A stretch of 64,000 nt of DNA from Limisphaerales bacterium (GCA_038249465.1 JBBRWD010000007.1:17308-81307), one strand, 5' to 3'; positions 12,054 through 62,817 are shown, numbered from the stretch's first letter. Program-made: numbers and translations. Notes: generated from the sequence alone by a model not told the origin.

Positions 12054-12783
12054 ATGCGTGTTCTCATAGCTACCGTGACGGCGGGTGCGGGCCACATGCA
12101 GGCGGCGGCGGCGCTGGAGGAAGCGTGGCGCGCTCTCCGGCCAGGCGACGATCTGAAACGCCTCGACGTTCTCGATTTCACTTCGCGTCTCTATCGCAAG
12201 ACCTACGTCGATGGTTACGCGAAGCTCGTCAAGCATGCGCCGGATTTGTGGGCGCTGATGTACCAGAAAGCCGACAACCCCTCACTCCTTCGCAGAATCA
12301 GCCGGCTGCGGCGCACGCTGGCCCTCCTGCCCACTGGACGATTTGCCCACGAAGTGAAGCGGTTCGCCCATCCCCGGCCAGGAAGCGGCGAACAGCGATT
12401 TCCTGCTCGAACAAGGCGTGGCGGCCAAGGTCAATCGCGTGGAGGATCTGCCGTTTCGCCTCGGCGCCTCTCGACACTGCCCCCGAAGGCAACCGGGTTG
12501 GAGCGCGGCGTTGACGTCGCTTCATCGTTCGAGAGACCGTCCGGCAATGTTTCGCCCACACCCATCGAACGCTGAAGCGGCCTCAAGGCCGCGCGCCGGG
12601 GGCAGTGCGCGGATGCGCCCGTTTCGCCTCGGCCGCCTGCTCGGCTCGGAGAAACTCACCGCGATGGCCAAAGCCGCTCGCTCGCTCGGCAAGCCAGACG
12701 CCGCTCGCGCGGTCTGCGAACGAACCTTGGAGAAGTGGCGCTCGCACGGGATCGAATGGAGCAAGAGGAAAGACAACGCATGA
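12054..12783 (+). pseudogene. MGDG-synthase/UgtP-like (GT28) glycosyltransferase remnant
   Basis: N-terminus MRVLIATVTAGAGHMQAA jumps, with a frameshift near 12366, to the C-terminal motif PIPGQEAANSDFLL. The middle is missing and the C-terminal part carries a 159-bp repeat. Confidence 0.75.
12462..12620. mobile_element. MITE-like 159-bp element, copy 1 (GGCGC(C)TCTCGACACTGCC...GGCAGTGCGCGGATGCGCCC)
   Basis: Terminal inverted repeats; flanking direct repeat CCGTTTCGCCTCGGC at 12451 and 12619; a near-identical inverted copy lies at 57420-57578. Confidence 0.8.
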
Positions 12784-13886
12784 GGACATTGGAAGCCGGA
12801 ATCATTCTCAGCGCAGTCCTGCTATCGCTCGGGACTTCAGCGATCGAATCGCGCGGCGACGAACTCAGGCGAGACGAACGCGTGATGCTCTATCCGGCCA
12901 TGGGCTGGCGCGCGAATGGGCAGTGGGAGATCGAACTGCACGGCTGGGTCTTCGAGCCTGAGCGGCGGCGACTCACCGAAGCAGTGGTCCGCCGCTCCCT
13001 TGGCATGGACGACGACGAGATGTCACAAGCGGAGCAACGGGTCTTTCACGAACGCATCCAGCCCTTCCTGGCGGACAGCGAAGGCGGGAAGCGCGTGCGG
13101 GTGCGGATCGGCGATGGCCCGGAGTCAGTCGCGGAAGCGGATCGTGGCGGACGATGTCGCTGGCGATTCACAGTGAGCGACGACCAGGTGGCGCGTTGGC
13201 AATCCACCGGATTGTTCACGAACGGTGTCGCCCGGTTCCTCATCGTCCGGCCCAACCGGCAGGAAGCTGCTCCGACTTTGCTGGAGTTGCTCGAACCAAT
13301 CGGCGTGTCCGCGATCTCGGACATCGACGATACCATCAAGATCAGCGCCGTCGGCAATCGTCGTGAACTGCTGCGGAACACGTTTTGCCGGCCAATGGCA
13401 CCTCTGCCGGGGATGGCAGAACTTTATCGAGCGTGGGAGAAAGCCGGCGCGCTCTTTCACTACGTCTCGGCCAGTCCTTGGCAGCTCTACGAACCGTTGA
13501 GTGCCTTCACGCGCAGCAACAGTTTTCCAGCGGGCACCTTTCACCTGAAACAGCTTGGAGTGACTGACGGCTCGCTGCGGAGGCTTTTCGATTCACCCGA
13601 AGAGTACAAAGTCCCGATCATCGAGGAGCTGCTGGCCCGCTTTCCTCAACGACAGTTCATTCTCGTGGGAGACTCGGGTGAAAAGGATCCCGAGATCTAC
13701 GGTGAACTGGCCAGGAAGCATCCCGAGCAAGTTGCGAAGATCCTCATCCGCAGGACAGAGGGCGCACCAATGACCGAGTCACGGCTACGCTCGGCTTTTG
13801 CGGACATGGCCCGGGAACGCTGGCAGATGTTCGATGCGGTCACGGAGATCGATCAAAGCCTGCCGCAGGATTCCACTAAACGATAA
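12780..13886 (+). CDS. App1-family (DUF2183) phosphatidate phosphatase-like protein with signal peptide
   Basis: ISDIDDTIK HAD motif, FHYVSASPWQLY, LVGDSGEKDPEIY. Confidence 0.85.
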   Translation: MRTLEAGIILSAVLLSLGTSAIESRGDELRRDERVMLYPAMGWRANGQWEIELHGWVFEPERRRLTEAVVRRSLGMDDDEMSQAEQRVFHERIQPFLADSEGGKRVRVRIGDGPESVAEADRGGRCRWRFTVSDDQVARWQSTGLFTNGVARFLIVRPNRQEAAPTLLELLEPIGVSAISDIDDTIKISAVGNRRELLRNTFCRPMAPLPGMAELYRAWEKAGALFHYVSASPWQLYEPLSAFTRSNSFPAGTFHLKQLGVTDGSLRRLFDSPEEYKVPIIEELLARFPQRQFILVGDSGEKDPEIYGELARKHPEQVAKILIRRTEGAPMTESRLRSAFADMARERWQMFDAVTEIDQSLPQDSTKR

Positions 13887-13957
13887 TAGATCGCAGTCCT
13901 GCCCGGGTGGCGTGTCCGAAATCCCGATCGCCTAAAAATGCAGGTCAACCGAATCCA

Positions 13958-16083: not shown

Positions 16084-18126
<2,043 letters not shown>

Positions 18127-19840: not shown

Positions 19841-19858
19841 TCAGCCATCCACCGCTAT

Positions 19859-19976
19859 GAAAGTCTCCGCAGGTAGGGCGCGTCTGTCTCAGCGCGCCGT
19901 TTGGGCCAGCGCCAGTTGCGGCGCGCTGAGGACAGACGCGCCCCACCACTCTCGGTGGCAACAGTGCGGATACTTC
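19859..19976. repeat. REP doublet family D (GGTAGGGCGCGTCTGTC..., 19872-19947) inside a GAAAGTCTCC...GGATACTTC shell
   Basis: Long hairpin; an inverted homolog lies at 51544-51664. Confidence 0.75.
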
Positions 19977-20000
19977 TGTAACAACCAACCTGAAATCCTC

Positions 20001-20945: not shown

Positions 20946-20992
20946 GGAGAAACCCACGAAAGATGACCGACCTTCGCCGCCAGAAACTGCGG

Positions 20993-21070
20993 CGTAGCGG
21001 CGTCTCGGCAGAGCGCCGATCTCTCCGCGCGTTCTTTTAGATGGCGGCGCTCTGCCGAGACGCCGCTACG
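20993..21070. repeat. REP doublet family A (CGTAGCGGCGTCTCGGCAGAGCGCC...GGCGCTCTGCCGAGACGCCGCTACG)
   Basis: Long-stem hairpin with GTAG end motif; further copies at 36112, 39504 and 48148. Confidence 0.85.
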
Positions 21071-21199
21071 GGGAATCGGCTTCAGTTGACAGAAGTCAAT
21101 TGCACCCCGCGGAAGTTTCCTTTAATCCCATCGTGTCACCCGGGCCTAGTGCGCGCCGGGTTTGTTGTAGTTTAAACCCGAAATCCACCCGCAACATTT

Positions 21200-33895: not shown

Positions 33896-36424
33896 ATGAC
33901 GACTGAACCCGCCATCACGCCGGAACTGGTGAAGAAGCACAATCTCACCCCCGACGAATACACGAAAATTCTGGAACTTCTCGGGCGCGAGCCGAGTTAC
34001 ACCGAGCTGGGCATCTTCTCAGTGATGTGGAGCGAGCATTGCTCTTACAAAAACACCCGCCCGCTGCTGAAAACCTTCCCCACCAAGTCGCCGAAAATTC
34101 TCGTCGGCGCGGGCGAGGAAAACGCCGGCATCATCGACATCGGCGACGGGCTGGCCATTGCCTTCAAGATCGAATCGCACAATCACCCCAGCGCGGTCGA
34201 GCCGTTTCAGGGCGCCGCGACGGGCGTGGGCGGCATCGTGCGCGACATCTTTACCATGGGCGCCCGGCCCATCGCGTCGGTCAACTCGCTGCGTTTCGGA
34301 CCCATCGTTTCAGATGTAGCAGCGGACGTGAGTCCGCTCCATTCAAATCCCGGAAATGATCAGAGCCGACTCACGTCGGCTGCTACCAACGGGGAGAATG
34401 AGGCCGCCTTGAGGAACAACCGCCGGCTCTTCAGCGGTGTCGTCGCCGGCATCGCGCATTACGGCAATTGTTTCGGCATTCCGACCATCGCGGGCGAAGT
34501 GTATTTCGACAAATCGTACGAGGGCAATCCGCTGGTGAACGCCTTCTGCCTCGGCGTGCTGCGTCACGATCAAATCGCGCGCGGCGCCGCCAAGGGCATC
34601 GGCAATCCCGTGTTCTACGTCGGTCCGGCCACCGGACGCGACGGACTGGCGGGCGCGGCGTTTGCCTCGCAGGATCTGACCGAGGAATCCGCCGAGCAAC
34701 AGCGCGGCGCGGTGCAGGTGGGCGATCCCTTCATGGAAAAGCTCGTCTGCGAAGCCTGCCTCGAACTCCTCGCCACCGGAGTGGTGGCGGGCATCCAGGA
34801 CATGGGCGCCGCCGGCTTGACGTGCTCGACGTGCGAAACCGCCGCACGCGCCGGCACGGGCATCGAGATCGAGTTGGACAAGGTGCCGCAGCGCGCGCCG
34901 AACATGTCGAGCTATGAGATCATGCTCAGCGAATCGCAGGAGCGCATGCTCATCATTGTGCAAAAGGGGCACGAGGACGAAGTGAAGCGCATCTTCGACA
35001 AGTGGGATCTGCCCTGGGCCGAGGTGGGCGTCGTCACCGACACCGGCCACATGGTCGTGCGCCATCACGGCAAGATCGTCGCGGACATTCCGGCCAGAAA
35101 GATTGCTGACGAGTCGCCGATCTATCAGCGCGAAGCGCGCGAACCGGAGTATCTGAAGGACGTGCGCGCGTTCCGATTGAACGGCCTCGACGACACCAAG
35201 GATCCCATCGCGAACCTCAAGGCGCTGCTCGCGTGGCCGACGATTGCCTCCAAGAACTGGGTCTATCGCCAATATGACCACATGGTGCGCGACAACACGG
35301 TCGTGTGCCCCGGCAGCGATGCGGCCGTGCTGCGCATCAAGGCCGATTGCGTGCCGGGTGGTTTGGAGTGCGGTGACTTGTCACCAGCGGCGGCGGGACT
35401 AGTCCCGCCGCAGACAAGCGCCGACAAGTCGGCGCACTCCAAAGACAAGCTCATCGCCATCTCCGTCGATTGCAACGGTGGCTATTGTTATCTCGATCCT
35501 TACGAAGGCGGCAAAATCGCCGTGGCGGAATGTGCGCGCAATCTCGCCTGCACCGGCGCCGTCCCGCTCGGCGCAACCGACAACCTCAACTTCGGCAACC
35601 CGCACAACCCCGAGCTTTTCTGGCAGCTCAAGGAATGCGTGCGCGGACTCGCCGATGCGTGCCGCGCCTTCAACGCGCCGGTGACTGGCGGCAATTGCTC
35701 GCTCTACAACCAGAGCCCGAGCGGCCCGATTGACCCGACACCCACCGTGGCGCTGGTCGGCCTCATCGAGAAGCCGGAGCACATCACCACGCAGTGGTTC
35801 AAGGACGAGGGCGACGCCATCATCCTGCTCGGCGACATCGTTGAGGAAACTGACAAGCTGGCAGGCCTCGGCGGCAGCGCTTATCTGCAAGTCATCCACG
35901 GCAAGAAGACCGGCACGCCGCCGCGCCTGAATCTCGATGAGGAAGCCAACCTGCACCGCACGTTGCGCTCGCTCATTGTGGGCGGCGGCATCAAGAGCGC
36001 GCACGATTGCAGCGAAGGCGGTCTCGCGGTGGCACTGGCCGAGAGCTGCATCTCGCAACTCACCGCGCGCGGCACGCCGCGCTTCATCGGCGCGACGGTG
36101 GACCTGACGGGCGTAGCGGCGTCTCGGCAGAGCGCCCCAAATCAGGCCCCAGCCCAAAGTGCGGCGCTCTCCCGAGACGCCGCTACGATGAGGCTTGACG
36201 CGCTGCTGTTCGGTGAAAGTCAGGGCCGGGTCGTCATCACCTGCACCGCACTGGATGCCACCAAGGTGGTGGAACGCGCGAAGATCCTCGGCGTGCCTGC
36301 CGCAAAGATCGGCACCGTGGGAGGTGACGCGCTCAAGCTCAAGACCCCGGCTGGCGAATTCTCCGCGCCCTTGGCGGAGTTGCACGACGGCTGGTGGAAC
36401 AGCATCGCGCGGACGATGAAGTGA
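33896..36424 (+). CDS. purL: Phosphoribosylformylglycinamidine synthase subunit PurL (small type) with three in-frame repeat insertions
   Basis: [46 protein letters not shown]. Confidence 0.97.
34316..34386. repeat. REP doublet family B, in-frame in purL
   Basis: GTAGCAGCGGACGTGAGTCCGCTC...GAGCCGACTCACGTCGGCTGCTAC; encodes [24 protein letters not shown]. Confidence 0.85.
35362..35443. repeat. REP doublet family C, in-frame in purL
   Basis: TTTGGAGTGCGGTGACTTGTCACC...GCGCCGACAAGTCGGCGCACTCCAAA; encodes LECGDLSP...SADKSAHSK. Confidence 0.8.
36112..36187. repeat. REP doublet family A, in-frame in purL
   Basis: Same arms as 20993-21070; encodes VAASRQSA...[10 protein letters not shown]. Confidence 0.85.
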
Positions 36425-37660: not shown

Positions 37661-37751
37661 CCCCTGAACCGTAGCAGCCGACGTGAGTCGGCTCTAACTT
37701 TCCCCGGTTGCAGATGGAGCGGACTCACGTCCGCTGCTACGCGGTTCATGG
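37661..37751. repeat. REP doublet family B (37670-37741) inside a CCCCTGAACC...GGTTCATGG shell
   Basis: Arms match the purL copy at 34316. Confidence 0.8.
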
Positions 37752-40498: not shown

Positions 40499-40614
40499 CG
40501 CGCATCTCAGTACTTGTAACGGCTGTGGCGAGAGGCAGCGGCAGGCTGCGATCTGCTGGCACTCCTCGGGCGACAAGACGCCGATTCAGACCGTTCAAGA
40601 AAGTGAGATGCGCG
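40499..40614. mobile_element. MITE-like element with CGCGCATCTCA...TGAGATGCGCG termini
   Basis: Imperfect ~23-bp terminal inverted repeats related to the GCGCATC ends of the 159-bp family. Confidence 0.55.
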
Positions 40615-46713: not shown

Positions 46714-46718
46714 GAGAA

Positions 46719-49135: not shown

Positions 49136-49150
49136 TGTCTCACCGTTTCC

Positions 49151-49771: not shown

Positions 49772-49854
49772 CCAGCCATTCCTTCCCCGCTTGGTCGGCT
49801 CGCACTGACTCCCTTTCCGTTGCCAAAGCGCGCCCGCTCGCGTCCACTCCGGCC

Positions 49855-50598: not shown

Positions 50599-50712
50599 AG
50601 TTCAACCCGAATTCCGAAGCAGCAGGGCTCCATGGCAGTAGCTCAGGCATCCTGCTTGACTCGAGTACGGCTACCAACACACACAAGGTGTCTGTGCCAC
50701 TTCAAATTCGGT

Positions 50713-51525
50713 TCAAAGCTGCTCGCGCAGCCAGCCGGGACGATTCGTCGTGATGCCATCCACGCCGAGATCGCGCAGGCGCCTTGCGTCCTCCGCCGCG
50801 TCCACCGTCCACACGTACAGCTTCAAGCCAGCGCGCTTGATCTCCTTCGCCGTCGCCGCCTCGATCGGCCCGCGGTACCCAAGGTCGAGTCCGTCAAGCT
50901 GCGCCGCTTTCGCCTGTTCGATGAGGCCCGCGATGGACGGCTGCCACTCGCCGCTCACGCCGCGTTTGAAGTCGGCAATCCAGCAGACTTCCCGGTCGGG
51001 AAACCGTTTCTTGGCGAGCTTCACCACGTCGTACTTGAAGCTGATGATCACGGTCTGCGCAGGTTTGAGCGCCGAGCGTTGCAGCGCCGCAGACAGTTCA
51101 TCGAGGCCTTCCGGCCCGCATTTGATCTCGATGAAAATTCGTTTGCCCGCCGGCACGGTGGCCAGCAAGTCATCGAGCGTCGGGATCTTTTCGCCGCGCC
51201 AGCGCGCTGCTTTCCAGCCTCCGGCTTCGAGCCCCGCAATTTCCGCGAGCGTCGTCTCGCCAATCTTCTTCGCCATCCCGGCGGTGCGCTTGAGCGAGTC
51301 ATCGTGCATCACGATCAGCTTGCCATCCTTGGAAAGATGCACGTCGAGTTCGACGGCGTCGGCGTGCTGCTGCCAGGCAAGACGGGCGGAGGCCACGGTG
51401 TTCTCAGGCGCGTCGAACGAAGCGCCGCGGTGCGCGATGATGTCAACGGCGGAGGCGGGCATGGCAATCAAGCCCGCGCCCAGCACGGTCAGCGCGGCCA
51501 GTGAAAGATTATTCATGAAGAACAT
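50713..51525 (-). CDS. Glycerophosphodiester phosphodiesterase, secreted
   Basis: IAHRGAS..APENT, VELDV, MHD, IEIK, VWTVD, GITTN. Confidence 0.92.
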   Translation of the reverse strand: MFFMNNLSLAALTVLGAGLIAMPASAVDIIAHRGASFDAPENTVASARLAWQQHADAVELDVHLSKDGKLIVMHDDSLKRTAGMAKKIGETTLAEIAGLEAGGWKAARWRGEKIPTLDDLLATVPAGKRIFIEIKCGPEGLDELSAALQRSALKPAQTVIISFKYDVVKLAKKRFPDREVCWIADFKRGVSGEWQPSIAGLIEQAKAAQLDGLDLGYRGPIEAATAKEIKRAGLKLYVWTVDAAEDARRLRDLGVDGITTNRPGWLREQL

Positions 51526-51543
51526 CGAGTTGTGAATCGTTGC

Positions 51544-51664
51544 GAAAGTTTCCGTGCCACGGTCCCAACCCAGAGCGGCAGGGCGCGTCTGTCCCAGCGC
51601 GCCGTCTGGGCCATCGCCAATCGCGGCGCGCTGGGACAGACGCGCCCTGCCTGTGGAGACTTTC
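51544..51664. repeat. REP doublet family D (51577-51651) inside a GAAAGTTTCC...GGAGACTTTC shell
   Basis: Inverted homolog of 19859-19976. Confidence 0.75.
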
Positions 51665-51685
51665 CCGGCGATTGATACTCTTGGT

Positions 51686-54600: not shown

Positions 54601-56047
54601 GCGCGAGTTCTGGAAGAATGTTGTCGCTCCGGCCCCACGCGAGGCCACGGCTTTGATGGACCTGCAACCTCTCGGGCGCCAGCCATTCGACGCCGCAGGT
54701 GAAGCCGAAGCCGCCGCTGACGCTGGTGAGGGCGCAGAGGCGGTTGCGCAGGAGCGACCATTGCCGTCCGAGGCGCGCCAGCCGTTCATTGTCGTGCGTC
54801 TCGCTGTAGTGAACGTAAAGGCCGACGCGCGTGCTCTGGCGCAGCGCGTAATCGAGGTAGTCGGCGATTTCGTGCCGCGAGTAATTCTGGAACAACTCGG
54901 AGTAGGCCCACTGCATGCCGCCCTCGGTGAGCAGGTTTTCCGTGGCTTCCCACGAGCCACCGAGACCTTCGAGGAGGAAGATGGTGTCGGGAAATTCCGT
55001 GTGGACGCGCGCGGTGATGTAACGCCACGCGGGCACGGGAATCTTGTAGCCGGCGTCGCAACGGAAGCCATCCACGCCGCGCCGGCACCATTCGAGGAAT
55101 ACTTCGGCGAGATGTTCCCAGAGGGCGCGATTGGAGTGGTCGAGCTCGACCAGATCCTCCCACGTTGTGCCCCAGGCGCCGGGGCTGACGAATTCCCCAT
55201 CCGCGCGACGGACGAACCAGCCCGGATGATTCTCCTGGAGCGTCGAGCCCCAGCCGGTGTGATTGGCCACCACATCGAGGAAGACCCGGCCGCCGCGGAG
55301 GTGCGTCTCGTAGGTGAGCTCGCGGAACTGATCGACGCCGGTGGTGCGCTTGTCGAATTCAACCAGCGCCGGATCGATCGCCAGAAAATCCTGACAGGCA
55401 TACGGGCTGCCAAAGCGGCCGAAGCGCGCATTGGTGGTGGGCGTGGGATTGACCGGCAGCAGGTGCAGAATGCGGCAGCCCAGCGTGTCGATGATGTGCG
55501 GCAGCGCGCGCGCCAGATCACGCAGCTTGCCCGAGGCGGGGATGACCGTGAAACCGTCGCGGTCGAGCGAGGTCAGGACGTGTTCGAGTTCCTCGTTGAC
55601 GGTGGAAGCCAGCGGCGCCGTGGGACCGAACATGCGGGGGAACGCGCAGTAAATTGTGTTCGCGGTGCGATACGCGTCGGGCTGCACGCTCACGCCGAAA
55701 TCGGGGCCGGGGGGCCAGTGCTGCCGGCCGGCGGGATCAATCGCGTAGGCTTTGGCGCGGAAGAAGCCGACCTCGGTCAGCGCCAGCGACACACCCCAAG
55801 CGTTGTCGCCAGCGGTAGCCAGAGTCAGATCGCGCCAGGAAGGTTGCGAGAGGCGAAGCTGGCCGGTGTGGGCGTGGATGATCTCGCGGCGCAGCATGGC
55901 GCCGCGGCCGAGATTGGTGCGCAGCCGCGCCTGCCATCCAGCGGGCAGGGAGCGGCCATCAGCGAAGCGCAGCGAGAAGGAGACTTGATCACCGACGAAC
56001 CGGATCAGCCGTTCTCCCACCGCCGGAGCCATGACGAGGTTTTCCAT
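51686..56047 (-). CDS. Large glycogen-debranching enzyme: GH13 alpha-amylase domain plus GDE_N and amylo-alpha-1,6-glucosidase (GDE_C)
   Basis: DVVANH, DGFRCDAG, THD; 'LTNGRGG'; IAGYPWFLDWGRD, TWMD, AYHNGTAWAW, QAW. Confidence 0.88.
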   Translation of the reverse strand: MENLVMAPAVGERLIRFVGDQVSFSLRFADGRSLPAGWQARLRTNLGRGAMLRREIIHAHTGQLRLSQPSWRDLTLATAGDNAWGVSLALTEVGFFRAKAYAIDPAGRQHWPPGPDFGVSVQPDAYRTANTIYCAFPRMFGPTAPLASTVNEELEHVLTSLDRDGFTVIPASGKLRDLARALPHIIDTLGCRILHLLPVNPTPTTNARFGRFGSPYACQDFLAIDPALVEFDKRTTGVDQFRELTYETHLRGGRVFLDVVANHTGWGSTLQENHPGWFVRRADGEFVSPGAWGTTWEDLVELDHSNRALWEHLAEVFLEWCRRGVDGFRCDAGYKIPVPAWRYITARVHTEFPDTIFLLEGLGGSWEATENLLTEGGMQWAYSELFQNYSRHEIADYLDYALRQSTRVGLYVHYSETHDNERLARLGRQWSLLRNRLCALTSVSGGFGFTCGVEWLAPERLQVHQSRGLAWGRSDNILPELARLNELLDQHPCFFDGARLTRLSAAEDQIYALGRESQEGLDCVLVLVNPDTRQTHTLALSRKIFRQLGEPSLDLLGQNPPVIEAETADKVVFRLEAGAAFCLGATAGPRGLDGDRYRCARAQSAWGITVVSRHFAGQDISAFDWRKLSALVARSPREFLGALTALDPAQVRSDLITALETTLVPGGFPQVISWCLPSRHRVTLVPHDHWLLIDDDAPFRAVLRARGLRPQHEASIEAGGRHYACFAPGQPVGDAEIELERYTQPDPRLRAPLRFLGAVPKVEPDFRAPGSLVLLTNGRGGMARLGVDLGAIRSKYDCLLGANLHPDVPVDRHVFVKRVRVWVNADGFITPLHLENLVDFSPGPPAAWRFVASAGDSRAVEIQLTADLLDGRNTTVLRFHRPATAVPFGHELPPQCSVSLTVRFDLEDRSFHSETQHNGGADFHFQSNTHPLADHAGFAFTPAADRQVRVGSDAGIYHPQPEWCDGLAHPVEGSRGQVAQGDAFSPGWFELPLAKGAVATFTVNAESAEPPRAEATGFIENRLRANELAVARAALAPDDDFGRRLALAVQAFVARRGEGKTVIAGYPWFLDWGRDSLICARGLLAAGLEEEVRRLLLVFGGFEQSGTLPNSIHGEDASNRDTSDAPLWFGVACEDLAARAGDASFDLKVNRDGRTLAEVLKSIAIHYRRGTPNGIIMDPVSALIWSPSHFTWMDTNFPAGTPREGYPIEIQVLWIRLLRVLERLGVPAEGVSWQSLAEQATASVHQLFWLETKGWLADVLVAPRGQPARGAAAQDALRSNSLMAVSLGVVEGERARRNVEAAARHLVVPGALRSLAPLPVSPPLPVRAPDGRLLNDPHRPYWGRYEGDEDTQRKPAYHNGTAWAWTFPGFCEALAQAWNFSPDAVAAARSYLGSADRLLAEGCIGQLPEITDGDAPHTQRGCDAQAWGATEALRVWKLLQPASQTTAACLGTK

Positions 56048-56124
56048 GCGAGTACGCGTCGGACGTTTGGGAGGATGCGGAGTGCGGGCAGCGGACGGCA
56101 ATCTCAAATCTGAGACTCCAAATT

Positions 56125-56634
56125 TCAGGCAGGCGGAACCGGCGGGATGCCGGCGGCCGCGTTGATGCGGGATCTCACCTGGTTGAGCAGACCCTGATAG
56201 TATTCCGCGCTTTTGCGCGAGACCAGTTTCTCCTCCCCCATGGCGAGATCTCCCCGGCCATCGACTCGATAGACTTTGCAGGAGAGCCGGAACACCCCCA
56301 ACTCATAGGCCACGACCGCAATCCGGGCGCGGATCCAGATGCTTTCAAACCAGCCGCCGTAGGCCAGCGTGTCCCACTTTGTGCCCTCGCGCTCAAACAC
56401 CAATTCGCCGCCGGCGGAGGTCTTCAGCATGAAACCACTTTCGCGGAAGACATTGAAGGTGACCTCGGAGATGGCGGCACGCGTCGAGTTCGTGATGAAG
56501 ACCGAGGCGAGCGAGCCATCATCCGGGGTGCCCGGCGCGACTTGGGGGGATTTGCAGGCTGAGAACAAGAATGCCGCCGTAAGCGTGAGGAAGAGGGCGG
56601 AAAAAAGCCGGCGCAGCGCGATGTGCAAATTCAT
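56125..56634 (-). CDS. Hypothetical lipoprotein
   Basis: LFSAC lipobox. Confidence 0.6.
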   Translation of the reverse strand: MNLHIALRRLFSALFLTLTAAFLFSACKSPQVAPGTPDDGSLASVFITNSTRAAISEVTFNVFRESGFMLKTSAGGELVFEREGTKWDTLAYGGWFESIWIRARIAVVAYELGVFRLSCKVYRVDGRGDLAMGEEKLVSRKSAEYYQGLLNQVRSRINAAAGIPPVPPA

Positions 56635-56730
56635 GGGCGGACACTACGCGGACGATTCGCGCCGGGCAACGAGGGTTTGCGTGAACCAGCGAAGGTTTCC
56701 CGAAGGATCGCCGTCCGCACGCTTCCTGGC

Positions 56731-57087
56731 CTACGGCGCCGGCGCCATCTTGATCTGCCCGGTGGTGGCGTCGTAGGTGAGTTTAAGACCCTGCGGCGCG
56801 ACCGGCAGCTTCGGCAGGTAGCCTTTCTCGACGAGTTCGTTGAGGTGCTTGGGCAGGCGTTCCTCGGCGGCCTCAAACATCTTGATGGCTTGCGCGACGT
56901 TGGCGAGATCCAGGTTCTTGCTGACGGTGGTCCCGGCCTTGCCGACGGCGCCCAAGTAGTCCACGGGCGCCGTGAGCGGATTGCCGCTGGAGGTTCCTGC
57001 TGCCGGTTTCTTGGGGTCCTCCTTTTTACCGCAGCCCGCGCCAACCGCAAGCGCGGCCAACACGAGGAGTGCAACCGGGAATTTCAT
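56731..57087 (-). CDS. Hypothetical lipoprotein (pseudopilin/GspG-like C-terminus)
   Basis: MKFPVALLVLAALAVGAGC; 'P..L.ELV..GYL..LP..P.G....YD...G'. Confidence 0.6.
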   Translation of the reverse strand: MKFPVALLVLAALAVGAGCGKKEDPKKPAAGTSSGNPLTAPVDYLGAVGKAGTTVSKNLDLANVAQAIKMFEAAEERLPKHLNELVEKGYLPKLPVAPQGLKLTYDATTGQIKMAPAP

Positions 57088-57171
57088 GGGCAAGGGGAAA
57101 TATTTGATCGCAAAAGCAAACACGGGCGCCAGGAGGAATCCCGGCGCCCGAGCTTGAGAGAGTTTTCCAGC

Positions 57172-57303
57172 TTACTTCGCCGGAGCCGGGGCCGGGGTGG
57201 CGTTGGTGCTGGGGGCGGTCGGAGGTGTCGGCTGGGTGCCGGAATCACAACCGGCGAACACGAACGCGGTGACAGCGAGGAGCAGGATGGACAGTAGTTT
57301 CAT
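57172..57303 (-). CDS. 43-aa lipoprotein (MKLLSILLLAVTAFVFAGCDSGTQPTPPTAPSTNATPAPAPAK)
   Basis: Manual translation; FAGC lipobox; below the ORF-track size cutoff. Confidence 0.7.
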   Translation of the reverse strand: MKLLSILLLAVTAFVFAGCDSGTQPTPPTAPSTNATPAPAPAK

Positions 57304-57419
57304 AGTGGATTGGAGTAGTTTTTTTCTCTCAGACCGAAAGCACTTCGGCCCGTCGGAAAGGAGTCATATCCGACGCTTCGGCAACATGCCAAGGAGAATC
57401 TGGACTCGAACCATTGCCC

Positions 57420-57578
57420 GGGCGCGTCCACGCACTGCCCCCGGCGCGCGGCCTTGAGGCCGCTTCAGCGTGCGATGGGTGTTGGGGAAACATTGGCGGA
57501 CGGTCTCTCGAACGATGAAGCGACGTAAACGTCGCGCTCCAACCCGGTTGCCTTCGGAGGCAGTGTCGAGATGCGCCC
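57420..57578. mobile_element. MITE-like 159-bp element, copy 2 (inverted relative to copy 1)
   Basis: Near-identical to 12462-12620; flanking direct repeat CCATTGCCCGGGCGCGTC at 57411 and 57579. Confidence 0.8.
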
Positions 57579-57631
57579 CCATTGCCCGGGCGCGTCGGTA
57601 AACGGGTGGATCTGGACCGCGGTGCGGGGGG

Positions 57632-57949
57632 TTACCGCCGGCGCACGCCGAGCCGTTCCCGCGCGGCTTCGCTCATCATGTCCGGGCTCCAGGGCGGATC
57701 CCAGACGATGTCCACCTGAACGTCCGCCACCCCGGACACTTCGAGCAATGCCTTGCTCACGCCCCAGGCGATGCTCTCGTGCATCGGACAGCCGGGCGTG
57801 GTCAGCGTCATCACCACGGTCACGATGCCGCCCTCCGCGCGCACGTCATACACCAGGCCGAGATCGACGATGTTGCAGCCCAGTTCCGGGTCATCGACCT
57901 GACGAAGGGTTTCCCACAGGGGTTGGTTTTCGAGAGCGGGTGCGTTCAT
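57632..57949 (-). CDS. Metal-sulfur cluster assembly factor (SufT/PaaD, DUF59)
   Basis: V.DPELG.NIVDLGLVY, TLTTPGCP, VWDPPW. Confidence 0.9.
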   Translation of the reverse strand: MNAPALENQPLWETLRQVDDPELGCNIVDLGLVYDVRAEGGIVTVVMTLTTPGCPMHESIAWGVSKALLEVSGVADVQVDIVWDPPWSPDMMSEAARERLGVRRR

Positions 57950-59367
57950 GCGGATGGCTTTGGATGGGGTTTGAGCACGAGCGGTTGCAGGCAAGGCCGG
58001 AAGAGATGGCTGAGAATCTTCGCCATGTTCGCGGCGAACAGCAGGAGGCTCGCTGCGAGGAGAACCGCGCCGGCCAGGCACATCTTTTCATTCATCATCA
58101 CGATGCCGGCACCCGTCACGATCAGGGCGGCGAGATAACTGCCGAAGCTGGCCACCTGCAGGCGCGCCGAGTAGAGATCCGCCAGCGAGGGCACCTTGCA
58201 CCGGCCAATCTGCCGGCTGTACACCGCGTACCAGACAAGAAAGGGCATGATTTTGAAAAGCATGCCGAGGATGGCGAGCGTCACCACGCCGAGCAGCGCG
58301 AGGAAGCCGTAGAGATTCTCCATCTGCCCGGTGAAGTCGGTCAGCGCCACTCCGGGCCACGACAGGAACAGGCCGAGGCCCGCCACCGGCGCGAGCAGCG
58401 AGAGCGCGAGGAGAAAGGCTTTGATGCCCCAATCGAGTTCGCGGCGCAGCCGGGCCTGGAGAATCGCGCGCATTTCCCATCCGTACACCACCAGACCGCC
58501 GGTCACCACGGCCGCGAAGACGGGCTTCAGCGCGCTTTGCAGCAGCACCGTGACGAAGAGTCCGGCGAGTCCGGCATTGAGCAGTCCGATGGACCAGGCC
58601 GCGCGCCTCGTGCTTTGCACGTCGCTGAGGGTGAACATCGGGACCAGCTTGTAGGAGACGCCCACGATCATCATCAGGAAGAAGCCGATGAACGCTGCGT
58701 GCGCGTGCGCGTGCATTTGCGCCATCGGCTGGAACGGGCTGAAGCTCCAGCATTTCGCCGCGGTCAGATACAGGCCGGCCAGCATGGCGAAGGAGATCCA
58801 GAACAGCGCCGAGGCGATGGCCCAGGCGATGACATTCCAGCGCGGAATCCGCTTCAGCGTGCGCGCGATGTTATAGACGAACAGCCCGATGCCCAGTCCA
58901 GCCAGGGAGCCCCAATGACCGACCTGTTTCATGTCGAAAATCCAGAACGTCCAGACCATCCCGGCCACGCCGAGCGCGTGCATGACGAACTGCCACCGGC
59001 CCAGCCGTTCGCTGAAGAGCCGGGCTTCCAGCGCCACCGGGACGAGCTGATACATCGCGCCCATCACGATGGACGCAATGAAGCCGAGCGTGAAGATGTG
59101 GGTGATGGCGAGGATCTGCGATCCGTAATGGTAATTGGCCAGCACGTCCGGCCGCGCCACGAGAAAGCCGGCGCCGGTGAAGAGCGAGAGCAGGCCGAAG
59201 ATCATGAAACGCATCGGCAGCGCGATGGACGGCGCGTTCTGGCTCGCCGGTCCACTCACGGAACTGGCGGCGCGCAGCATCGGCGCGGAAGCTGGCGCTG
59301 GCATCGGTCCCGGTGGCGTGGTACTGGCAGGCGTGTTGAAGGAACGGCTGGCGGCAAAGGCGCTCAT
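57946..59367 (-). CDS. Polytopic membrane protein, heme-copper oxidase subunit I/NnrS-like fold
   Basis: About 12 TM; 'THIFTLGF...MGAMYQL.PV' and 'HAH....GF....I.G..Y.L.PMF'. Confidence 0.7.
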   Translation of the reverse strand: MSAFAASRSFNTPASTTPPGPMPAPASAPMLRAASSVSGPASQNAPSIALPMRFMIFGLLSLFTGAGFLVARPDVLANYHYGSQILAITHIFTLGFIASIVMGAMYQLVPVALEARLFSERLGRWQFVMHALGVAGMVWTFWIFDMKQVGHWGSLAGLGIGLFVYNIARTLKRIPRWNVIAWAIASALFWISFAMLAGLYLTAAKCWSFSPFQPMAQMHAHAHAAFIGFFLMMIVGVSYKLVPMFTLSDVQSTRRAAWSIGLLNAGLAGLFVTVLLQSALKPVFAAVVTGGLVVYGWEMRAILQARLRRELDWGIKAFLLALSLLAPVAGLGLFLSWPGVALTDFTGQMENLYGFLALLGVVTLAILGMLFKIMPFLVWYAVYSRQIGRCKVPSLADLYSARLQVASFGSYLAALIVTGAGIVMMNEKMCLAGAVLLAASLLLFAANMAKILSHLFRPCLQPLVLKPHPKPSA

Positions 59368-59389
59368 GGCGAAGGGGGTCAGAGGGGCG

Positions 59390-59614
59390 TCACTTGCGGC
59401 GGATGACGGTGATGAAGCTGCCGCCAGGCTGTTCCTCACTGGCGCCTGTGAAACCACGTTCCTCAAGAAATCCGTAGAGGTGCATCGGGCGGCGGTCCGT
59501 TTGCGCGCGCAGTTCGGCGCCGTCGGGCAGCGTGGCGAGGGCTTCGAGAATCCGCACGAGCGGCTGCGGGGGCTCCAGACCGCGCGCATCAACCGCAATC
59601 ACATTGTCACTCAT
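59390..59614 (-). CDS. DUF2249 domain protein (SirA/TusA-like fold)
   Basis: VDARGLEPPQPL..IL...DRRP..L...L..RGF. Confidence 0.85.
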   Translation of the reverse strand: MSDNVIAVDARGLEPPQPLVRILEALATLPDGAELRAQTDRRPMHLYGFLEERGFTGASEEQPGGSFITVIRRK

Positions 59615-59685
59615 AGCGGCAGAACCGTAGCCGCTCGCGCCCGTCGGCGCTTTGATACGCATCAACGAACGCAGCGGTGCTCCGT

Positions 59686-60717
59686 TTACTGCGGGACCGC
59701 CCTGTCGGCTGGCTCGACCTTGTTCTCCAACTCCTTCACGCGGCGGATCAGTTCGGGCAGCCGTTCCAACGCAATGTAGATGCGTTTCGTTTCACGATCC
59801 CGACGTGCCGGAGCGCCGAGCCATTTTTCGCCATCAGGGATGTCCGTCATCACGCCGGACTGTGCGGATATGGTGACATGGTTGCCAATCTTGAGATGTC
59901 CGGCCAGGCCGACCTGTCCCGCCAGCGTCACGTGATCACCCAGCTTCGTGCTGCCGGCGATGCCCGTCTGCGAGATGATGATGCAATGCTCTCCAATGAC
60001 GACGTTGTGCCCGATCTGCACCAGATTGTCGATCTTGGTGTCCCGCCCGATGACGGTGCTGCCGAGCGCGCCGCGATCGATCGTGGTGTTGGCTCCGATC
60101 TCGACGTCGTCGTGGAGAACAACATTGCCCACCTGGCTCACCTTGACCTGCTGGCCTTGATCCAACACGTAGCCGAAGCCATCGGAGCCGATGACCGCAC
60201 CGGCATGAATGCGCACGCGCCGGCCGATGCTGGTCCGCGGATAAATGGTGACGCGTGGATAAACGCGCGTGTCCTCGCCGAGGCATGCGTCGTCGCCCAC
60301 GTAGGCGAGTGCTTGCAATACCACACGCGGCCCGAGGTGGACGCGTTCGCCGACCACGCAACCCGGGCCAATGTGCACCGTGGAATCCACCTGCGCCGAC
60401 GCCGCCACCACGGCCGTGGGATGCACGCCCGGCGCGAAGACCGGTTCCGGAAAGAACAGCGGCAGCACCCGGGCGAAGGCTGCGCGCGGATTGGCCACGC
60501 GGATGAGCGTCTTGCTTCCATGGGTCACATCCTTCGGCACCAGGATGGCGCTGGCGGCGCTTTGCTCGGCGCGGGCGAGGTAAGTCTCATTCTCGGCAAA
60601 GGTGAGGTCGCCGGCCTTGGCGAGATTCGCCGCGGCGAATCCGGTCAGAGCGACGGAGCCGTCGCCGGCAATCTCCCCGCCCAGTTGACGGGCAATTTCA
60701 GCAGCAGTGAAAGGCAT
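59686..60717 (-). CDS. lpxD: UDP-3-O-acyl-glucosamine N-acyltransferase LpxD
   Basis: Hexapeptide repeats, IGSDGFGY, VEIGANTTIDRG, KIDNLVQIGHN. Confidence 0.96.
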   Translation of the reverse strand: MPFTAAEIARQLGGEIAGDGSVALTGFAAANLAKAGDLTFAENETYLARAEQSAASAILVPKDVTHGSKTLIRVANPRAAFARVLPLFFPEPVFAPGVHPTAVVAASAQVDSTVHIGPGCVVGERVHLGPRVVLQALAYVGDDACLGEDTRVYPRVTIYPRTSIGRRVRIHAGAVIGSDGFGYVLDQGQQVKVSQVGNVVLHDDVEIGANTTIDRGALGSTVIGRDTKIDNLVQIGHNVVIGEHCIIISQTGIAGSTKLGDHVTLAGQVGLAGHLKIGNHVTISAQSGVMTDIPDGEKWLGAPARRDRETKRIYIALERLPELIRRVKELENKVEPADRAVPQ

Positions 60718-60786
60718 GACGTGGCAAATAGGTTTGAGATCTGAGATTCCAGCGGAGCGGCGGGAAGACCTTCGCCGGTGTCCGGT

Positions 60787-61155
60787 TCACCGTACCGTAC
60801 CGGTCTGTTTGATGACGGCGTTCTTCTCGCCGCAAACGATCATGCGCGGCTTCCACGCGTCGGCCTGCGCTTCCTCGACTTCGGTGAACGCCATGATGAC
60901 GAGGCGTTCGCCCGCCTTGCCGAGATGGGCGGTGGAACCGTTGAGCACGATGGCGCCGGAGCCGCGCTCGCCGCGGATGGCATACGTCTCGAAACGGTTG
61001 CCGTTGGCCAGATTGCTGCACAGGATGCGCTCGTACTGGCGCAATCCCACAAGCTCCATCAAGTCCTCCGCAATCGTGAGGCTGCCTTCATAATCAACAC
61101 TCGCGCCGGTGACCTGGGCGCGGTGAATCTTCGATTTGAGCAGGTGTATCAACAT
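60787..61155 (-). CDS. panD: Aspartate 1-decarboxylase
   Basis: LKSKIHRA.VT, YEG/SLTI self-cleavage site, NGNRFETY. Confidence 0.95.
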   Translation of the reverse strand: MLIHLLKSKIHRAQVTGASVDYEGSLTIAEDLMELVGLRQYERILCSNLANGNRFETYAIRGERGSGAIVLNGSTAHLGKAGERLVIMAFTEVEEAQADAWKPRMIVCGEKNAVIKQTGTVR

Positions 61156-61247
61156 AGTCTCCAGGCAGACCGCCCGCCTGACAGCCCGGCAACTATAGGG
61201 TCGGGAAACGGACATTCAACTGCTAGTTTGGGCGCGCGTATTGATGG

Positions 61248-61430
61248 GGGCGCATCCGCGCACTGCCCGGAGCGCGGGTGTGTCGAAGACCATCCGCAGC
61301 AGCTTCGCCATAAGCAGCCGCTGACATACCCCCGATGCTTCCGCGCATTTTGGGCAGGCTGCGGCTGGTCGAGAACGACACAGCCGCGATCCGGTTTGGT
61401 ATGGCTCCGGGGCGGTGCGCGGATGCGCCC
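61248..61430. mobile_element. MITE-like element with the same GGGCGCATCCGCGCACTGCC termini as the 159-bp family but a different palindromic core
   Basis: ~20-bp TIRs; core arms GGAGCGCGGGTGTGTCG...CGACACAGCCGCGATCC. Confidence 0.7.
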
Positions 61431-61575
61431 CTCCTCCGGCGCTGCCCTGAACTTTGAGCTTGGAACTTTGAGCGTTGCCCTCGAAATTCCGCCCTCGCTG
61501 GCTGTGGCGGAAAACCAGCCGGTGACAGCGATCCTCGCGAGATTCAATTAGCACAGATCGCAGAGCAAAAACCGC

Positions 61576-62817
61576 ATGAAGCCGTCATCCATCTTCGAGA
61601 GTTACGCCGCGCGTCTGCGCGATTTCATCCGCCGCCATTCCCCGGCGGATGGATCCGTGGCGGCTGACGAGGGCGAATTCAACGCGCTCGCGCTGGATCT
61701 CTTCGGCCTCCACTACGCGCACAATCCCGCCTACCGCGCCCTCTGCCATGCGCGCAAACAGCTGCCGCTCGATGTGAGCAACTGGCGCGAAATCCCCGCC
61801 GTGCCCACCGTTGCCTTCAAGGAGATGGAGATGACGGTTCTCTGCCCCGACGAGCGCACCGCCGAGTTTCATTCGAGCGGCACCACCGGCGACGAACCGG
61901 GGCGCCATTTCCACTGCGACGCATCGCTGGCGATTTACGAGGCGTCGTTGCTGCCGTGGTTCCAGGCGCATGTGTTGCCGGAAACACTCGATGGCCCGGC
62001 CGGGTTCACGTTCGTCGCGCTTACGCCGCCGCCGTCGCTGGCGCCACATTCGTCGCTCGCGCACATGTTCGACACCGTGCGGCGGCGATTTGCCGCGGAG
62101 CAATCCATCTTCACCGGCGAGCCTGCACCCGAGGCTGGCTGGCGGGTGAACCATGAGGAGACGCTGCGCCGCCTGCGCGAAGCCGCGGCCCACGGGCTGC
62201 CGGTCGTGTTGCTCGGCACCGCATTCAACTTCGTTCACCTGCTCGACCGGATGACCGACGAGGGTGTGAGCCTGACACTTCCCGCCGGCTCGCGCGTGAT
62301 GGAAACCGGCGGCTACAAAGGCCGCTCACGCGAATTGCCGCGGCCCGAACTGCACGCGCTCATCGCCGCGCGCCTCGGCATCGCGCGAGATTTCATTGTC
62401 TGCGAATACGGCATGAGCGAACTGAGTTCGCAGGCCTACGACACCGTCGCCGGGATCGCGCGAGAGTCCCAGTTGGGTGCTCGCGAGTCGATTTCAAAAC
62501 CCCGTAGCAGCCGAGGTAACGAGGCTCAAATTTCCGGGAAATCAGAGCCTCCTCACGTCGGCTGCTACGGTTCTGAATCTGGCTCCCGAAACTTCCGCTT
62601 CCCCCCGTGGGCCCGTGCTCAAATCATCTCGCCCGAAACCGGAGACGAAGTCGGCGACGGCGAGGCCGGGCTGGTCCGCGTGCTGGATCTGGCCAACGTC
62701 GCCTCGGCGGTCACGCTGCAAACGGAAGATCTCGCCGTGCGACGCGGCGATGGTTTCGAATTGCTCGGGCGTTCGACCGACGCCGAACCGCGCGGGTGTT
62801 CCCTGATGTCGCTCTGA
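61576..62817 (+). CDS. LuxE/PaaK-like acyl-protein synthetase with an in-frame repeat insertion
   Basis: F.SSGTTG, ETGGYKG, EYGMSELSSQAY, DLAN, TEDL, LLGR. Confidence 0.85.
   Translation: MKPSSIFESYAARLRDFIRRHSPADGSVAADEGEFNALALDLFGLHYAHNPAYRALCHARKQLPLDVSNWREIPAVPTVAFKEMEMTVLCPDERTAEFHSSGTTGDEPGRHFHCDASLAIYEASLLPWFQAHVLPETLDGPAGFTFVALTPPPSLAPHSSLAHMFDTVRRRFAAEQSIFTGEPAPEAGWRVNHEETLRRLREAAAHGLPVVLLGTAFNFVHLLDRMTDEGVSLTLPAGSRVMETGGYKGRSRELPRPELHALIAARLGIARDFIVCEYGMSELSSQAYDTVAGIARESQLGARESISKPRSSRGNEAQISGKSEPPHVGCYGSESGSRNFRFPPWARAQIISPETGDEVGDGEAGLVRVLDLANVASAVTLQTEDLAVRRGDGFELLGRSTDAEPRGCSLMSL
62485..62585. repeat. REP family B doublet (62503-62569) inside a GAGTCGATTTCAAAACC...GGTTCTGAATCTGGCTC shell, in-frame in the LuxE-like gene
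   Basis: CGTAGCAGCCGAGGT...CTCACGTCGGCTGCTACG arms; encodes ESISKPRSSRGNEAQISGKSEPPHVGCYGSESGS. Confidence 0.75.

Follow-up and report, generated by a model that had tools for sequence, protein, structure and literature searches.

Type II MITEs, the closest described relatives of the repeats analyzed here, have only their TIRs in common with their IS, according to the part of PMC10969869 available to us; the same part describes QMITE1 and QMITE2 of Coxiella burnetii, in which full MITEs grade into truncated REP-like copies. For the ISKra4 group, the accessible sections of PMC3942029 give inverted repeats of 18–39 bp and direct repeats of 8 or 9 bp, and the phyla they name for p-MULT 4 do not include Verrucomicrobia. 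Mosaic assemblies have been described as well: BIMEs are mosaics of REP and other conserved motifs in set combinations (PMC2817692, in excerpt), and in Pseudomonas a GTAG unit forms composites with unrelated stem-loop repeats (PMC3733652, in excerpt).

We analyzed a stretch of 64,000 nucleotides (the window) from a Limisphaerales bacterium, a soil- or sediment-type organism, within its draft assembly (217 contigs, 96% complete). An initial annotation of the window had described shells of inverted repeats enclosing exchangeable palindromic cores, and had named no described counterpart of this architecture; precedents do exist in the type II MITEs (PMC10969869), the BIMEs and the GTAG units with stem-loops (PMC3733652), as far as the excerpts of these sources go. 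The copies of the first repeat family, family A, are the following:

12462..12620, + strand: A1 MITE, 159 bp; first base C, consensus G; TIRs GGCGCCTCTCGACACTGCCCCCG and CGGGGGCAGTGCGCGGATGCGCCC
12453..12461, no strand assigned: left copy of the 9-bp target-site duplication GTTTCGCCT; right copy at 12621-12629
57420..57578, - strand: A1 MITE, 159 bp, in the opposite orientation to the copy at 12462-12620
57411-57419 and 57579-57587: 9-bp duplication CCATTGCCC around the copy at 57420-57578
61248..61430, + strand: A2 element, 183 bp, with the TIRs of A1 and an E-type core

The two A1 elements, at 12462-12620 and 57420-57578, are inverted copies of each other (aligned over 12463-12621 and 57419-57577, 159 nt, 94% complementary). 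The first is situated between groEL and an APP1-like gene and folds end to end as DNA at -52.9 kcal/mol (z = -4.27); into the second, contigs that a different study obtained from a related strain run from either side. A2 has only about 21–29 nt per end in common with the A1 copies (for the arms 12592-12620 and 61248-61276, 29 nt at 90% identity), and its interior differs, consisting of two GGAGCGCGG-stem-CCGCAGC hairpins inverted relative to each other; the element folds at -67 kcal/mol (z = -6.86). Its flanks, tattgatgg and ctcctccgg, do not match, so that a target duplication is absent, and it is the sole two-TIR copy among the ~5 A2-family members in the genome, the relatives being 72–86% identical with TIRs degraded or gone. 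The element at 61248-61430 is an old two-ended member of family A with an E-type hairpin-doublet core. Common termini around one core at 12462-12620 and 57420-57578 and around another at 61248-61430, as first annotated, are borne out by these alignments and by the genome-wide pattern counts below. None of the 51 ORFs of the window scanned against Pfam is a transposase, in agreement with the annotation.

Throughout the genome, the family A shell has the form GGGCGCATC-N4-CACTGCCCCC and matches the 22–24-bp TIR of a ~1.38-kb IS of the ISKra4 group (Mutator-like, DDE), which is present in many Verrucomicrobiota genomes and duplicates 9 bp of its target. Allowing at most one mismatch, the pattern GGGCGCATCNNNNCACTGCCCC has 229 genomic matches, against 0 for the reversed pattern. 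The A1 MITE, which is non-coding, is present in ~110–140 genomic copies (140 matches of at least 140 nt, median identity 93.7%), and several assembly contigs terminate within such copies. Among the 117 two-ended family A elements of up to 400 bp found genome-wide, the 9-bp flank repeat is perfect in 58 and agrees at 8 or more of the 9 positions in 80, whereas a shifted control reached this level in 0/117. Since these duplications surround shell and core together, the two move as one unit, the point for which the annotation had proposed a check; their length fits the ISKra4-group value. The shell also occurs elsewhere in the order: it was matched in 10 of the 41 genomes searched (the 40 relatives compared all belong to families other than that of the host), with 342 matches in G038, 31 in G002, 12 in G007 and 9 in G035, all from other GTDB families.

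Autonomous IS with matching TIRs, a second check proposed with the annotation, were found in other genomes, as copies of 1362–1378 bp that carry GGGCGCATC-N4-CACTGCCCCC at both ends. The ORF of the 1378-bp copy at G002:C105 matches NF033572 'ISKra4 family transposase' (E = 1.2e-42) with 146.6 bits, below the curated NCBIfam cut-off of 205 bits, and its 5' end looks frameshifted; G030:C50 codes for a transposase with 57% identity to this one, between the same TIRs, and the duplication TGTCACGGC flanks the element. When genome contigs were scanned, 25 loci in MAGs were obtained, mostly labelled Verrucomicrobiota or its classes, in 17 of which TIR pairs lie 1286–1407 bp apart (one pair, at L042, looks spurious). 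Flanks match at 8–9 of 9 positions at six autonomous loci. When A1 and A2 were compared by BLAST with 30 IS-bearing loci, significant matches were confined to the terminal 20–25 nt, apart from one E-like unit at L039, which lies beyond the IS in the flanking sequence; for the A1 interior nothing was found in these loci at E < 0.01, its likeness being limited to the terminal 22–25 nt. In the host assembly itself we found no cognate transposase. Only three ISKra4-like genes are present, 28–32% identical, whose termini show no clear inverted repeats and have only GGG(C/T)GC, the first 6 nt, in common with the shell. Because the assembly consists of 217 contigs, several of them ending inside A1 copies, the IS could be unassembled. 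These data support the view, already proposed in the annotation, that the shells of family A are ends of IS type on which a DDE transposase acts in trans; ISKra4-family elements with the same TIR do occur in other Verrucomicrobiota genomes.

We therefore read family A as type II MITEs of an ISKra4-group IS (prokaryotic Mutator-like, DDE) with several hairpin-doublet interiors on the same ends, a reading to which we assign a probability of roughly 0.75. As in type II MITEs generally, the elements are small and non-coding, carry the TIRs of an autonomous IS, are flanked by a target duplication and have an interior unrelated to that IS. They differ in that several unrelated interiors occur on one TIR set in one genome, that the TIR is constant across the GTDB families of an order, and that the interiors are composed of REP-like head-plus-hairpin modules, part of them found at other genomic sites too. 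With the ISKra4 group (p-MULT 4) they agree in the NF033572 match, in inverted repeats of 22–24 bp ending in G...C, and in the 9-bp direct repeats. The literature searched held no description of a Verrucomicrobiota lineage of this group or of its high-copy MITE derivatives. We would place family A among the type II MITEs, as a variant whose cores are REP-like: an unusual form of a known phenomenon and not a new kind of system.

The interiors were tabulated by assigning cores to reference cores, since single-linkage clustering placed 115 of the 117 elements together because nested elements bridge families. A1 accounts for 90 of the 117, variants of A1 for 18, A4 for 5 and A2 for 1; the others are one A5/F element and two nested ones (A1+A5 and A1+A4). 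Five unrelated interiors lie inside family A ends in the host genome (A1 with its variants, A4, E and F). Flanks match in all 5 A4 copies. At C46 18377 an F doublet fits exactly between two A TIRs, and this single two-ended copy has no target duplication; as the same holds for A2, unit transposition in the host genome is shown for A1 and A4 only. G038, the relative from another family, has at least five interiors in the shell, each with a 9-bp duplication; one of these elements is near-empty, with 53 bp and the structure TIR-GCGCTCC-TIR. One shell accordingly carries many cores, in two genomes, as the annotation had claimed for the window. Elements are directly nested at C31 2809 and C55 20429, and a hybrid at C18 10692 combines an A TIR at one end with a different outer arm at the opposite end. 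A1 units outside the shell are rare (4/144 and 8/155); the cores E, F and D are found bare or in more than one context. The commonest A cores have GGAG or GGCG heads and not GTAG, and such heads are also those of the E and A1 units. Across 10 arms of E-type hairpins, with stems counted directly, pairing holds in 69 of 70 stem cells, and stem positions 5–7 vary by changes on both sides, that is, in a compensatory manner.

Under the type II MITE reading, the shell would be what the transposase binds and would for that reason stay constant, and the whole element would be cut and pasted, leaving the 9-bp target duplication behind. As the transposase would read the ends alone, the interior would be replaceable. 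Judging from the two nested cases and the hybrid, cores were likely exchanged through a small palindromic repeat inserting between the ends, through collapse of a long palindrome, or through recombination between repeats. The family resembles QMITE1 and QMITE2 in that A2 decays in the same way; there, by the excerpt of PMC10969869, the process is one of sequence loss, whereas here cores have been replaced and not merely truncated. An improbable extension of this reading is that the GGAGCGCG-stem-GCAGC hairpin pair is a working internal module of a Mutator-like MITE superfamily and not passive cargo; compensatory change would then have maintained it throughout an order of Verrucomicrobiota, and it could for instance bind a second enzyme, specific for single strands (HUH-type), or a host factor. 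If so, two transposition chemistries would act on one and the same small element, with cores and shells recombining as separately evolving units.

A third interior in a related terminus had been annotated at one further position:

40499..40614, no strand assigned: inverted repeat of 11 nt (CGCGCATCTCA), single-copy, with a PIG-L-family gene to one side and an RCC1-repeat gene to the other

Searched against the genome, this stretch returned only its self match. Compared over the 16 specified positions of the shell, its two ends show 5 and 9 mismatches, and at up to 5 mismatches the shell has 11,992 genomic matches against 8,558 for the reversed control, which puts the likeness at chance level. 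We rejected it as a member of family A.

The remaining doublets of the window belong to families B, C and D:

34316..34386, + strand: B1, GTAG-tagged family B doublet without outer arms, in frame within purL
37661..37751, - strand: B2, family B doublet (37671-37740) with arms CCCCTGAACC and GGTTCATGG, intergenic
62485..62585, + strand: B3, family B doublet (62504-62568) with arms GAGTCGATTTCAAAACC and GGTTCTGAATCTGGCTC
20979..21085, no strand assigned: family C GTAG-tagged doublet
36098-36202 (in frame in purL), 39490-39590 and 48134-48236: further family C doublets
19846..19991, - strand: D1 (C7 37166), a diverged D-long element with a D doublet inside TCA(A/G)TCGTTGCGAAAGT-type TIRs, 77% identical to D2
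51533..51675, + strand: D2, D-long element with left TIR TGAATCGTTGCGAAAGT, D doublet core and right end ...CCGGCGATTGA, followed by TA

A different 107-bp repeat (37750-37856) abuts B2. Family B comprises 45 doublets and 29 single units genome-wide. The annotation had seen its core bare and in two shells: the doublets at 34316, 37671-37740 and 62504-62568 are real, but the shells are outer arms specific to subfamilies, those of the CCATGAACC / GGTTCAGGGG type being present on ~6 of the 45 doublets and those of the GAG.CGATTTCAAAA type on ~3–4 (arms like those of B3 recur at C97 and C63 and, in part, at C137). An A TIR lies near 0/56 B units and 1/175 C units. Family C, which had been placed in no shell, has A TIRs on both sides in 0 of its 175 units.

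The D-long form (~145 bp, TIR TCA(A/G)TCGTTGCGAAAGT) was found in ~40 long copies. Its shell pattern has 102 matches against 25 for the control, TA stands directly outside 31 of the 61 shell TIRs that adjoin a D unit, and 122 of the 133 matches to a D flank motif adjoin D loci. Counted with indels allowed, as one doublet arm usually has a 1-nt bulge, the D-long TIR is missing from both sides of 350 of the 405 D loci. A search for an autonomous partner of the D-long TIR gave no IS-sized pair; the pattern occurs 34 times in the host and 0–3 times in the 40 relatives. Both D copies that had been annotated in a GAAAGT(C/T)TCC shell are indeed D-long elements; the exchangeable core did not hold up, as 18 of 19 paired D shells contain the D core, an outcome the annotation had itself named as counting against exchange. 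The D shell in effect goes with a single core and, like those of family B, is a subfamily-specific outer arm. In B, C, D, E and F doublets, the head and the GC-rich hairpin are the constant part and the outer flanks vary by subfamily, giving the converse picture of one core in several shells or bare.

Mosaic assembly of REP with other motifs may be common to these repeats, the BIMEs and the composite Pseudomonas repeats; outer motifs do recur here (S2 has 28 matches against 4 for its control). They differ in that at least one outer motif class here is a bona fide DDE-transposon end with target duplication. The outer motifs of BIMEs are not known to be transposon ends.

GTAG heads with GC-rich hairpins in inverted doublets, as seen in B, C, D and F, raise the question of a second mobility layer, in which, as the annotation had proposed, the cores would be REPINs copied by a RAYT/HUH enzyme, packaged in MITE ends and moved again by a DDE transposase. 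We consider this rather unlikely. As with REPINs and RAYTs, GTAG-tagged inverted GC-rich doublets number in the tens to hundreds (at 45 to ~400 loci, mostly without TIRs) and IS200-like Y1 genes are present in the host genome, with 11 Y1_Tnp matches, all above the Pfam cut-off; the F doublet exactly between A TIRs at C46 18377 would fit as well, and GTAG repeats are reported from Verrucomicrobia in the excerpt of PMC3733652. Against this layer, none of the 11 Y1_Tnp loci has B, C, D, Dv, E, F, H or A1 units on both sides within 1 kb, so that the search for RAYT genes next to the cores, suggested in the annotation, gave no case; one-sided doublets alone occur near these loci, at distances above 300 bp from the matched domain, and the four short Y1 genes are flanked by their own low-copy hairpins (2–5 copies each). 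As the Y1 genes lack flanking dispersed repeats, there is no REPtron here, a difference from REPINs and RAYTs that adds to the GGAG heads on the commonest A cores and to the occurrence of some doublets within DDE-type TIRs with target duplications. The near-confinement of A1 units to the shell also speaks against packaging of a mobile core. No insertion polymorphism of bare doublets, and no empty or filled site of any other element, was seen in Logan contigs of four public runs over 44001-63900, which stop at the repeats and bridge no site; in X1–X3, the summed contig depth at A1 is ~90–100x the neighbouring depth, these sums not being copy numbers. What copies the bare doublets, and which transposase now acts in the host genome, are matters of inference.

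Alternatively, the host may keep the hairpin doublets for a function of its own, such as ending or stabilizing transcripts or binding a protein, with the shells as incidental carriers, which we regard as unlikely. Compensatory changes do maintain the stems, most window copies are intergenic, and the folds of the elements are far more stable than those of shuffled sequence. On the other hand, no Rfam family matches the window at the gathering threshold, and three doublets lie in frame inside purL, where a transcript-end role is not suggested; at the B1 site, alignment with solved PurL structures places the insertion at residues 139–176. Host function also leaves the 9-bp duplications unexplained. 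It is compatible with the type II MITE reading and does not oppose it.

Quite unlikely, in our estimate, is DDE transposition as the sole process, with bare cores as worn-down MITEs that have lost TIRs and duplications. The A2-family copies at C57, C43, C171 and C5, with one or degraded TIRs around the E core, show such wear, and truncated QMITE2 copies without DRs and TIRs 'more closely resembled REPs' in the accessible part of PMC10969869. This account is at odds with the 350 D loci that have no D-long TIR and with the near-absence of A TIRs around B and C units, and outside-inward decay does not predict doublets that are highly alike while their flanks are unrelated. Chance similarity in GC-rich DNA, true for 40499-40614 only, can be virtually dismissed: the pattern controls (229 against 0 for family A, 102 against 25 for family D) and the duplications of family A (80/117 against 0/117) refute it for both families.

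Through the type II MITE reading, a class of repeats that is abundant but lacks annotation is linked to one specific transposase family, with ~230 ends here and ~340 in a relative of another family. In practice, such repeats break assemblies, several contigs ending inside them, and the in-frame repeats within the essential gene purL affect annotation. The forms from the 53-bp near-empty element to 250 bp, with a hairpin, a GTAG-REP or another core, are a natural series for what a Mutator-like bacterial transposase needs beyond its ends. Many different interiors have, over a long period, been carried between a single set of transposon ends. The findings also bear on whether REP-like hairpins spread partly via MITEs.

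Family A elements end in terminal inverted repeats (TIRs) of the form GGGCGCATC(TCGA or CGCG)CACTGCCCCCG, the shell, which enclose a hairpin-rich interior, the core. As the initial annotation had described, the two long copies in the window form complementary arms (12463-12621 and 57419-57577; 159 nt, 94% complementary), and the element at 61248-61430 has its ends alone in common with them (29 nt, 90%). Across the draft genome (7.39 Mb, 217 contigs, G+C 62.2%), the 159-bp element gave 171 BLAST matches, 140 of which span at least 140 nt (median identity 93.7%), and a short direct repeat visibly flanks most copies. The 22-nt end pattern, allowing at most one mismatch, was found 229 times in the genome and never when read backwards as a control. 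Among 117 two-ended elements (≤400 bp), 58 carry a perfect 9-bp duplication and 80 have flanks that agree in at least 8 of 9 positions, compared with none of 117 in a control with the left flank displaced by 9 nt. Shell and core therefore insert as one, leaving a 9-bp duplication, as both A1 copies in the window illustrate:

12453-12461 and 12621-12629: 9-bp duplication GTTTCGCCT, flanking the first A1 copy
57411-57419 and 57579-57587: 9-bp duplication CCATTGCCC, flanking the second A1 copy

A related terminus had also been proposed at 40499-40614. Against the 16 specified shell positions its ends show 5 and 9 mismatches; with up to 5 allowed, the pattern yields 11,992 matches versus 8,558 for the reversed control. 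The likeness is at chance level, and the stretch has no other match anywhere in the genome.

Sorted by interior, the 117 two-ended elements split over several cores within a constant shell, as the initial annotation had claimed from far fewer copies.

Table. Interiors of two-ended family A elements (n = 117).
A1: 90
A1 variants: 18
A4: 5
A2 (E-type core, window copy): 1
A5 (F-family GTAG doublet): 1
Nested A1+A5: 1
Nested A1+A4: 1

Matching flanks were found in all five A4 copies, and no matching duplication in the flanks of the A2 window copy or the F-core copy. The four other A2 relatives (72–86% identity) have lost or degraded TIRs, and the A2 family is old. In G038, a relative from another GTDB family, the same ends surround at least five interiors, every one with a 9-bp duplication:

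E-like interiors: three classes of 161, 162 and 196 bp
GTAG-containing class: 140-151 bp
Near-empty shell (L054, G038:C49:5160-5280): 53 bp, TIR-GCGCTCC-TIR, 9-bp duplication GTGCGGAGG

Further, different interiors lie inside the shell in two other relatives (G002 and G035). Because the shells of these three genomes hold varied interiors, the central observation holds and reaches well past the window. At one G038 locus (L053, C12:1262-1472), an A-type MITE is inserted in an E-type hairpin unit, and its duplication, TGGAGCGCG, is the head of the interrupted unit, a single case and a possible hint that such heads are occasional transposase targets.

Across genomes, the usual plan is a TIR, an inverted pair of GGAGCGCG-hairpin units and a second TIR, with a 10–17-nt spacer between TIR and hairpin pair on one side only in some elements. 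In the 7-bp stem of E-type units, pairing holds for 69 of 70 cells (10 arms, from G038 and the window), and the inner three positions show two-sided changes (GC/CG, TA/CG, CG/GC). Whole elements fold along their full length, and do so far better than shuffled sequences (A1, z = -4.27; A2, z = -6.86).

The search for an autonomous insertion sequence (IS) with matching TIRs, suggested in the initial annotation, succeeded in other genomes. The shell end pattern is present in 10 of 41 genomes searched (control, 0 in all), including other GTDB families of the same order (342 matches in G038, 31 in G002, 12 in G007 and 9 in G035). In G002, an ORF that is apparently frameshifted in its 5' part lies between two shell ends spaced by 1378 bp and matches the NCBIfam model NF033572 'ISKra4 family transposase' (E = 1.2e-42; 146.6 bits, under the curated cut-off of 205). 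The same ends surround a 421-codon open frame in a further relative (G030), where the gene is 57% identical to that of G002 and the IS is flanked by the duplication TGTCACGGC. A scan of genome contigs for the transposase returned 25 loci, mostly from MAGs labelled Pedosphaera sp., Verrucomicrobiia or Verrucomicrobiota; these IS relatives place the lineage in Verrucomicrobiota. At 17 of them a TIR pair lies 1286–1407 bp apart (the pair at locus L042 looks spurious), most pairs start with GGGCGCATCTTGACACTGCCCCC, and flanks match at 8–9 of 9 positions at six loci. The ends and duplications fit the ISKra4 group as characterized in the relevant section of PMC3942029 (inverted repeats of 18–39 bp, direct repeats of 8 or 9 bp). 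Family A ends are thus those of an ISKra4-group IS. Since the likeness between MITE and IS is confined to the terminal 20–25 nt, family A elements classify as type II MITEs in the terms used in part of a review (PMC10969869).

The window, whose housekeeping genes include mnmG, dnaK, groEL, pckG, argF, purL, argJ, argB, lexA and lpxD, is without a transposase, as first noted (zero transposase domains in 51 ORFs scanned), and no Rfam family matched within it. The whole assembly holds just three ISKra4-like genes, which are distant (28–32% identical) and whose termini differ from the shell past the first six bases, so a resident transposase source was not found in the assembly. Many contigs terminate inside A1 copies (C2 230, C3 135, C30 148, C33 148, C86 127, C54 46480, C65 38747 and others), making A1 MITEs a main source of assembly breaks in this genome.

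The dispersed units differ in how often they occupy the A shell.

Table. Genomic contexts of core units.
A1 units: almost always in the A shell; without a nearby TIR in 4/144 and 8/155
E units: in the A shell, within a second outer inverted repeat (AGAGCCTGTCTGAAAA; 28 matches versus 4 in the control), in a one-sided A-TIR hybrid, or bare
F units: in the A shell at C46 and partly at C109, C101 and C31; 40 BLAST matches in total, mostly outside it
B (56), C (175) and D (246) units: never between two A TIRs; everywhere elsewhere

Family B comprises 45 doublets and 29 single units genome-wide. The outer arms assigned to it do occur, around about 6 and about 3–4 of the 45 doublets; doublets of the same core subtype are also found without them. 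For family D, both window copies do share a shell as proposed, belonging to a ~145-bp element (D-long) with the TIR TCA(A/G)TCGTTGCGAAAGT (102 matches versus 25 in the control). The D core fills 18 of 19 paired shells, and the family has a single core per shell. D-long gave 40 matches of at least 115 nt, with TA immediately outside 31 of 61 ends. Its shell brackets 16 of ~405 D loci on both sides, 39 on one and 350 on neither; it is nearly limited to its own genome (34 matches versus 0–3 among 40 relatives), and no autonomous partner was found in these genomes. A commoner context of D doublets is the flank GGTTGGGACCAAGCGTCTTC (133 matches, 122 adjoining D loci; e.g. C2 9178, 98197, 118214 and 186553).

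Several window repeats lie within or beside genes. Three palindromic repeats absent from solved PurL structures are inserted in the purL frame (33890-36424) without closing it:

~34304-34417: B1 doublet, residues 139-176
~35345-35453: 'H'-family inverted pair (TTTGGAGTGCGGTGACTTGTCACC...), residues 486-521
~36098-36202: C2 doublet, residues 736-770

The B3 doublet (62485-62585) lies within a 413-codon open frame (ORF 61576-62817) that matches LuxE at residues 14-105 only, and may extend or interrupt this LuxE-like ORF. Another ~107-bp repeat family (37750-37856; 9–14 genomic matches, e.g. C34, C110 and C2) abuts B2. The motif ACTTTGAGCTT(C/G)GAACTTTGAGC occupies two intergenic sites (47206-47246 and 61451-61477), the second starting 20 nt past the A2 element. 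Unrelated to the mobile repeats, a 117-bp tandem array (41121-42736; 10–12 copies, 70–86% identity) codes for the RCC1-type repeats of ORF 40908-42962.

A second mobility layer, in which RAYT-type tyrosine transposases (Y1_Tnp) would move the cores, found no support in this assembly. Of 11 Y1_Tnp matches above the Pfam cut-off, none has dispersed-family units on both sides within 1 kb. Four, including genes at C72, C39 and C12, are short IS200-like genes whose immediate flanks are their own low-copy hairpins (2–5 copies each). These loci resemble the 'TIR-flanked' tyrosine transposases of Di Nocera and colleagues, with their own hairpins rather than dispersed repeats; passages of the same paper (PMC3733652) record GTAG repeats from Verrucomicrobia, together with composites of a GTAG unit and an unrelated stem-loop. 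The doublets look like REPINs, but the defining RAYT link was not found in this assembly. Weak Y1_Tnp matches (31–34 bits) occur in 1083–1372-codon open frames (C82:22645, C87:27757 and C67:10705), which may be fused proteins or GC-rich spurious frames.

For family A, we infer that the transposase would require the ends alone, and the interior would therefore be replaceable. Three routes to new cores are suggested: one repeat inserting inside another (elements directly nested at C31 2809 and C55 20429), recombination (hybrid at C18 10692) and palindrome collapse (the 53-bp element). The opposite arrangement, in which head and hairpin stay constant and the flanks vary, would be expected if some other, putative agent recognised the hairpin.

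The initial proposal of exchangeable cores in mobile shells is thus confirmed in part as an observation and supported in part as an interpretation. In the literature searched, with subscription journals and ISfinder outside its scope, neither MITEs derived from ISKra4 elements in Verrucomicrobiota nor REP-like doublets between DDE-type ends were described. Type II MITEs, ISKra4 ISs, REP-like doublets and mosaic repeats are already-known kinds; what is new is the combination of these parts and its breadth. The finding would be of wider interest if transposition proved to need the hairpin module, or if a second enzyme proved to act on it.
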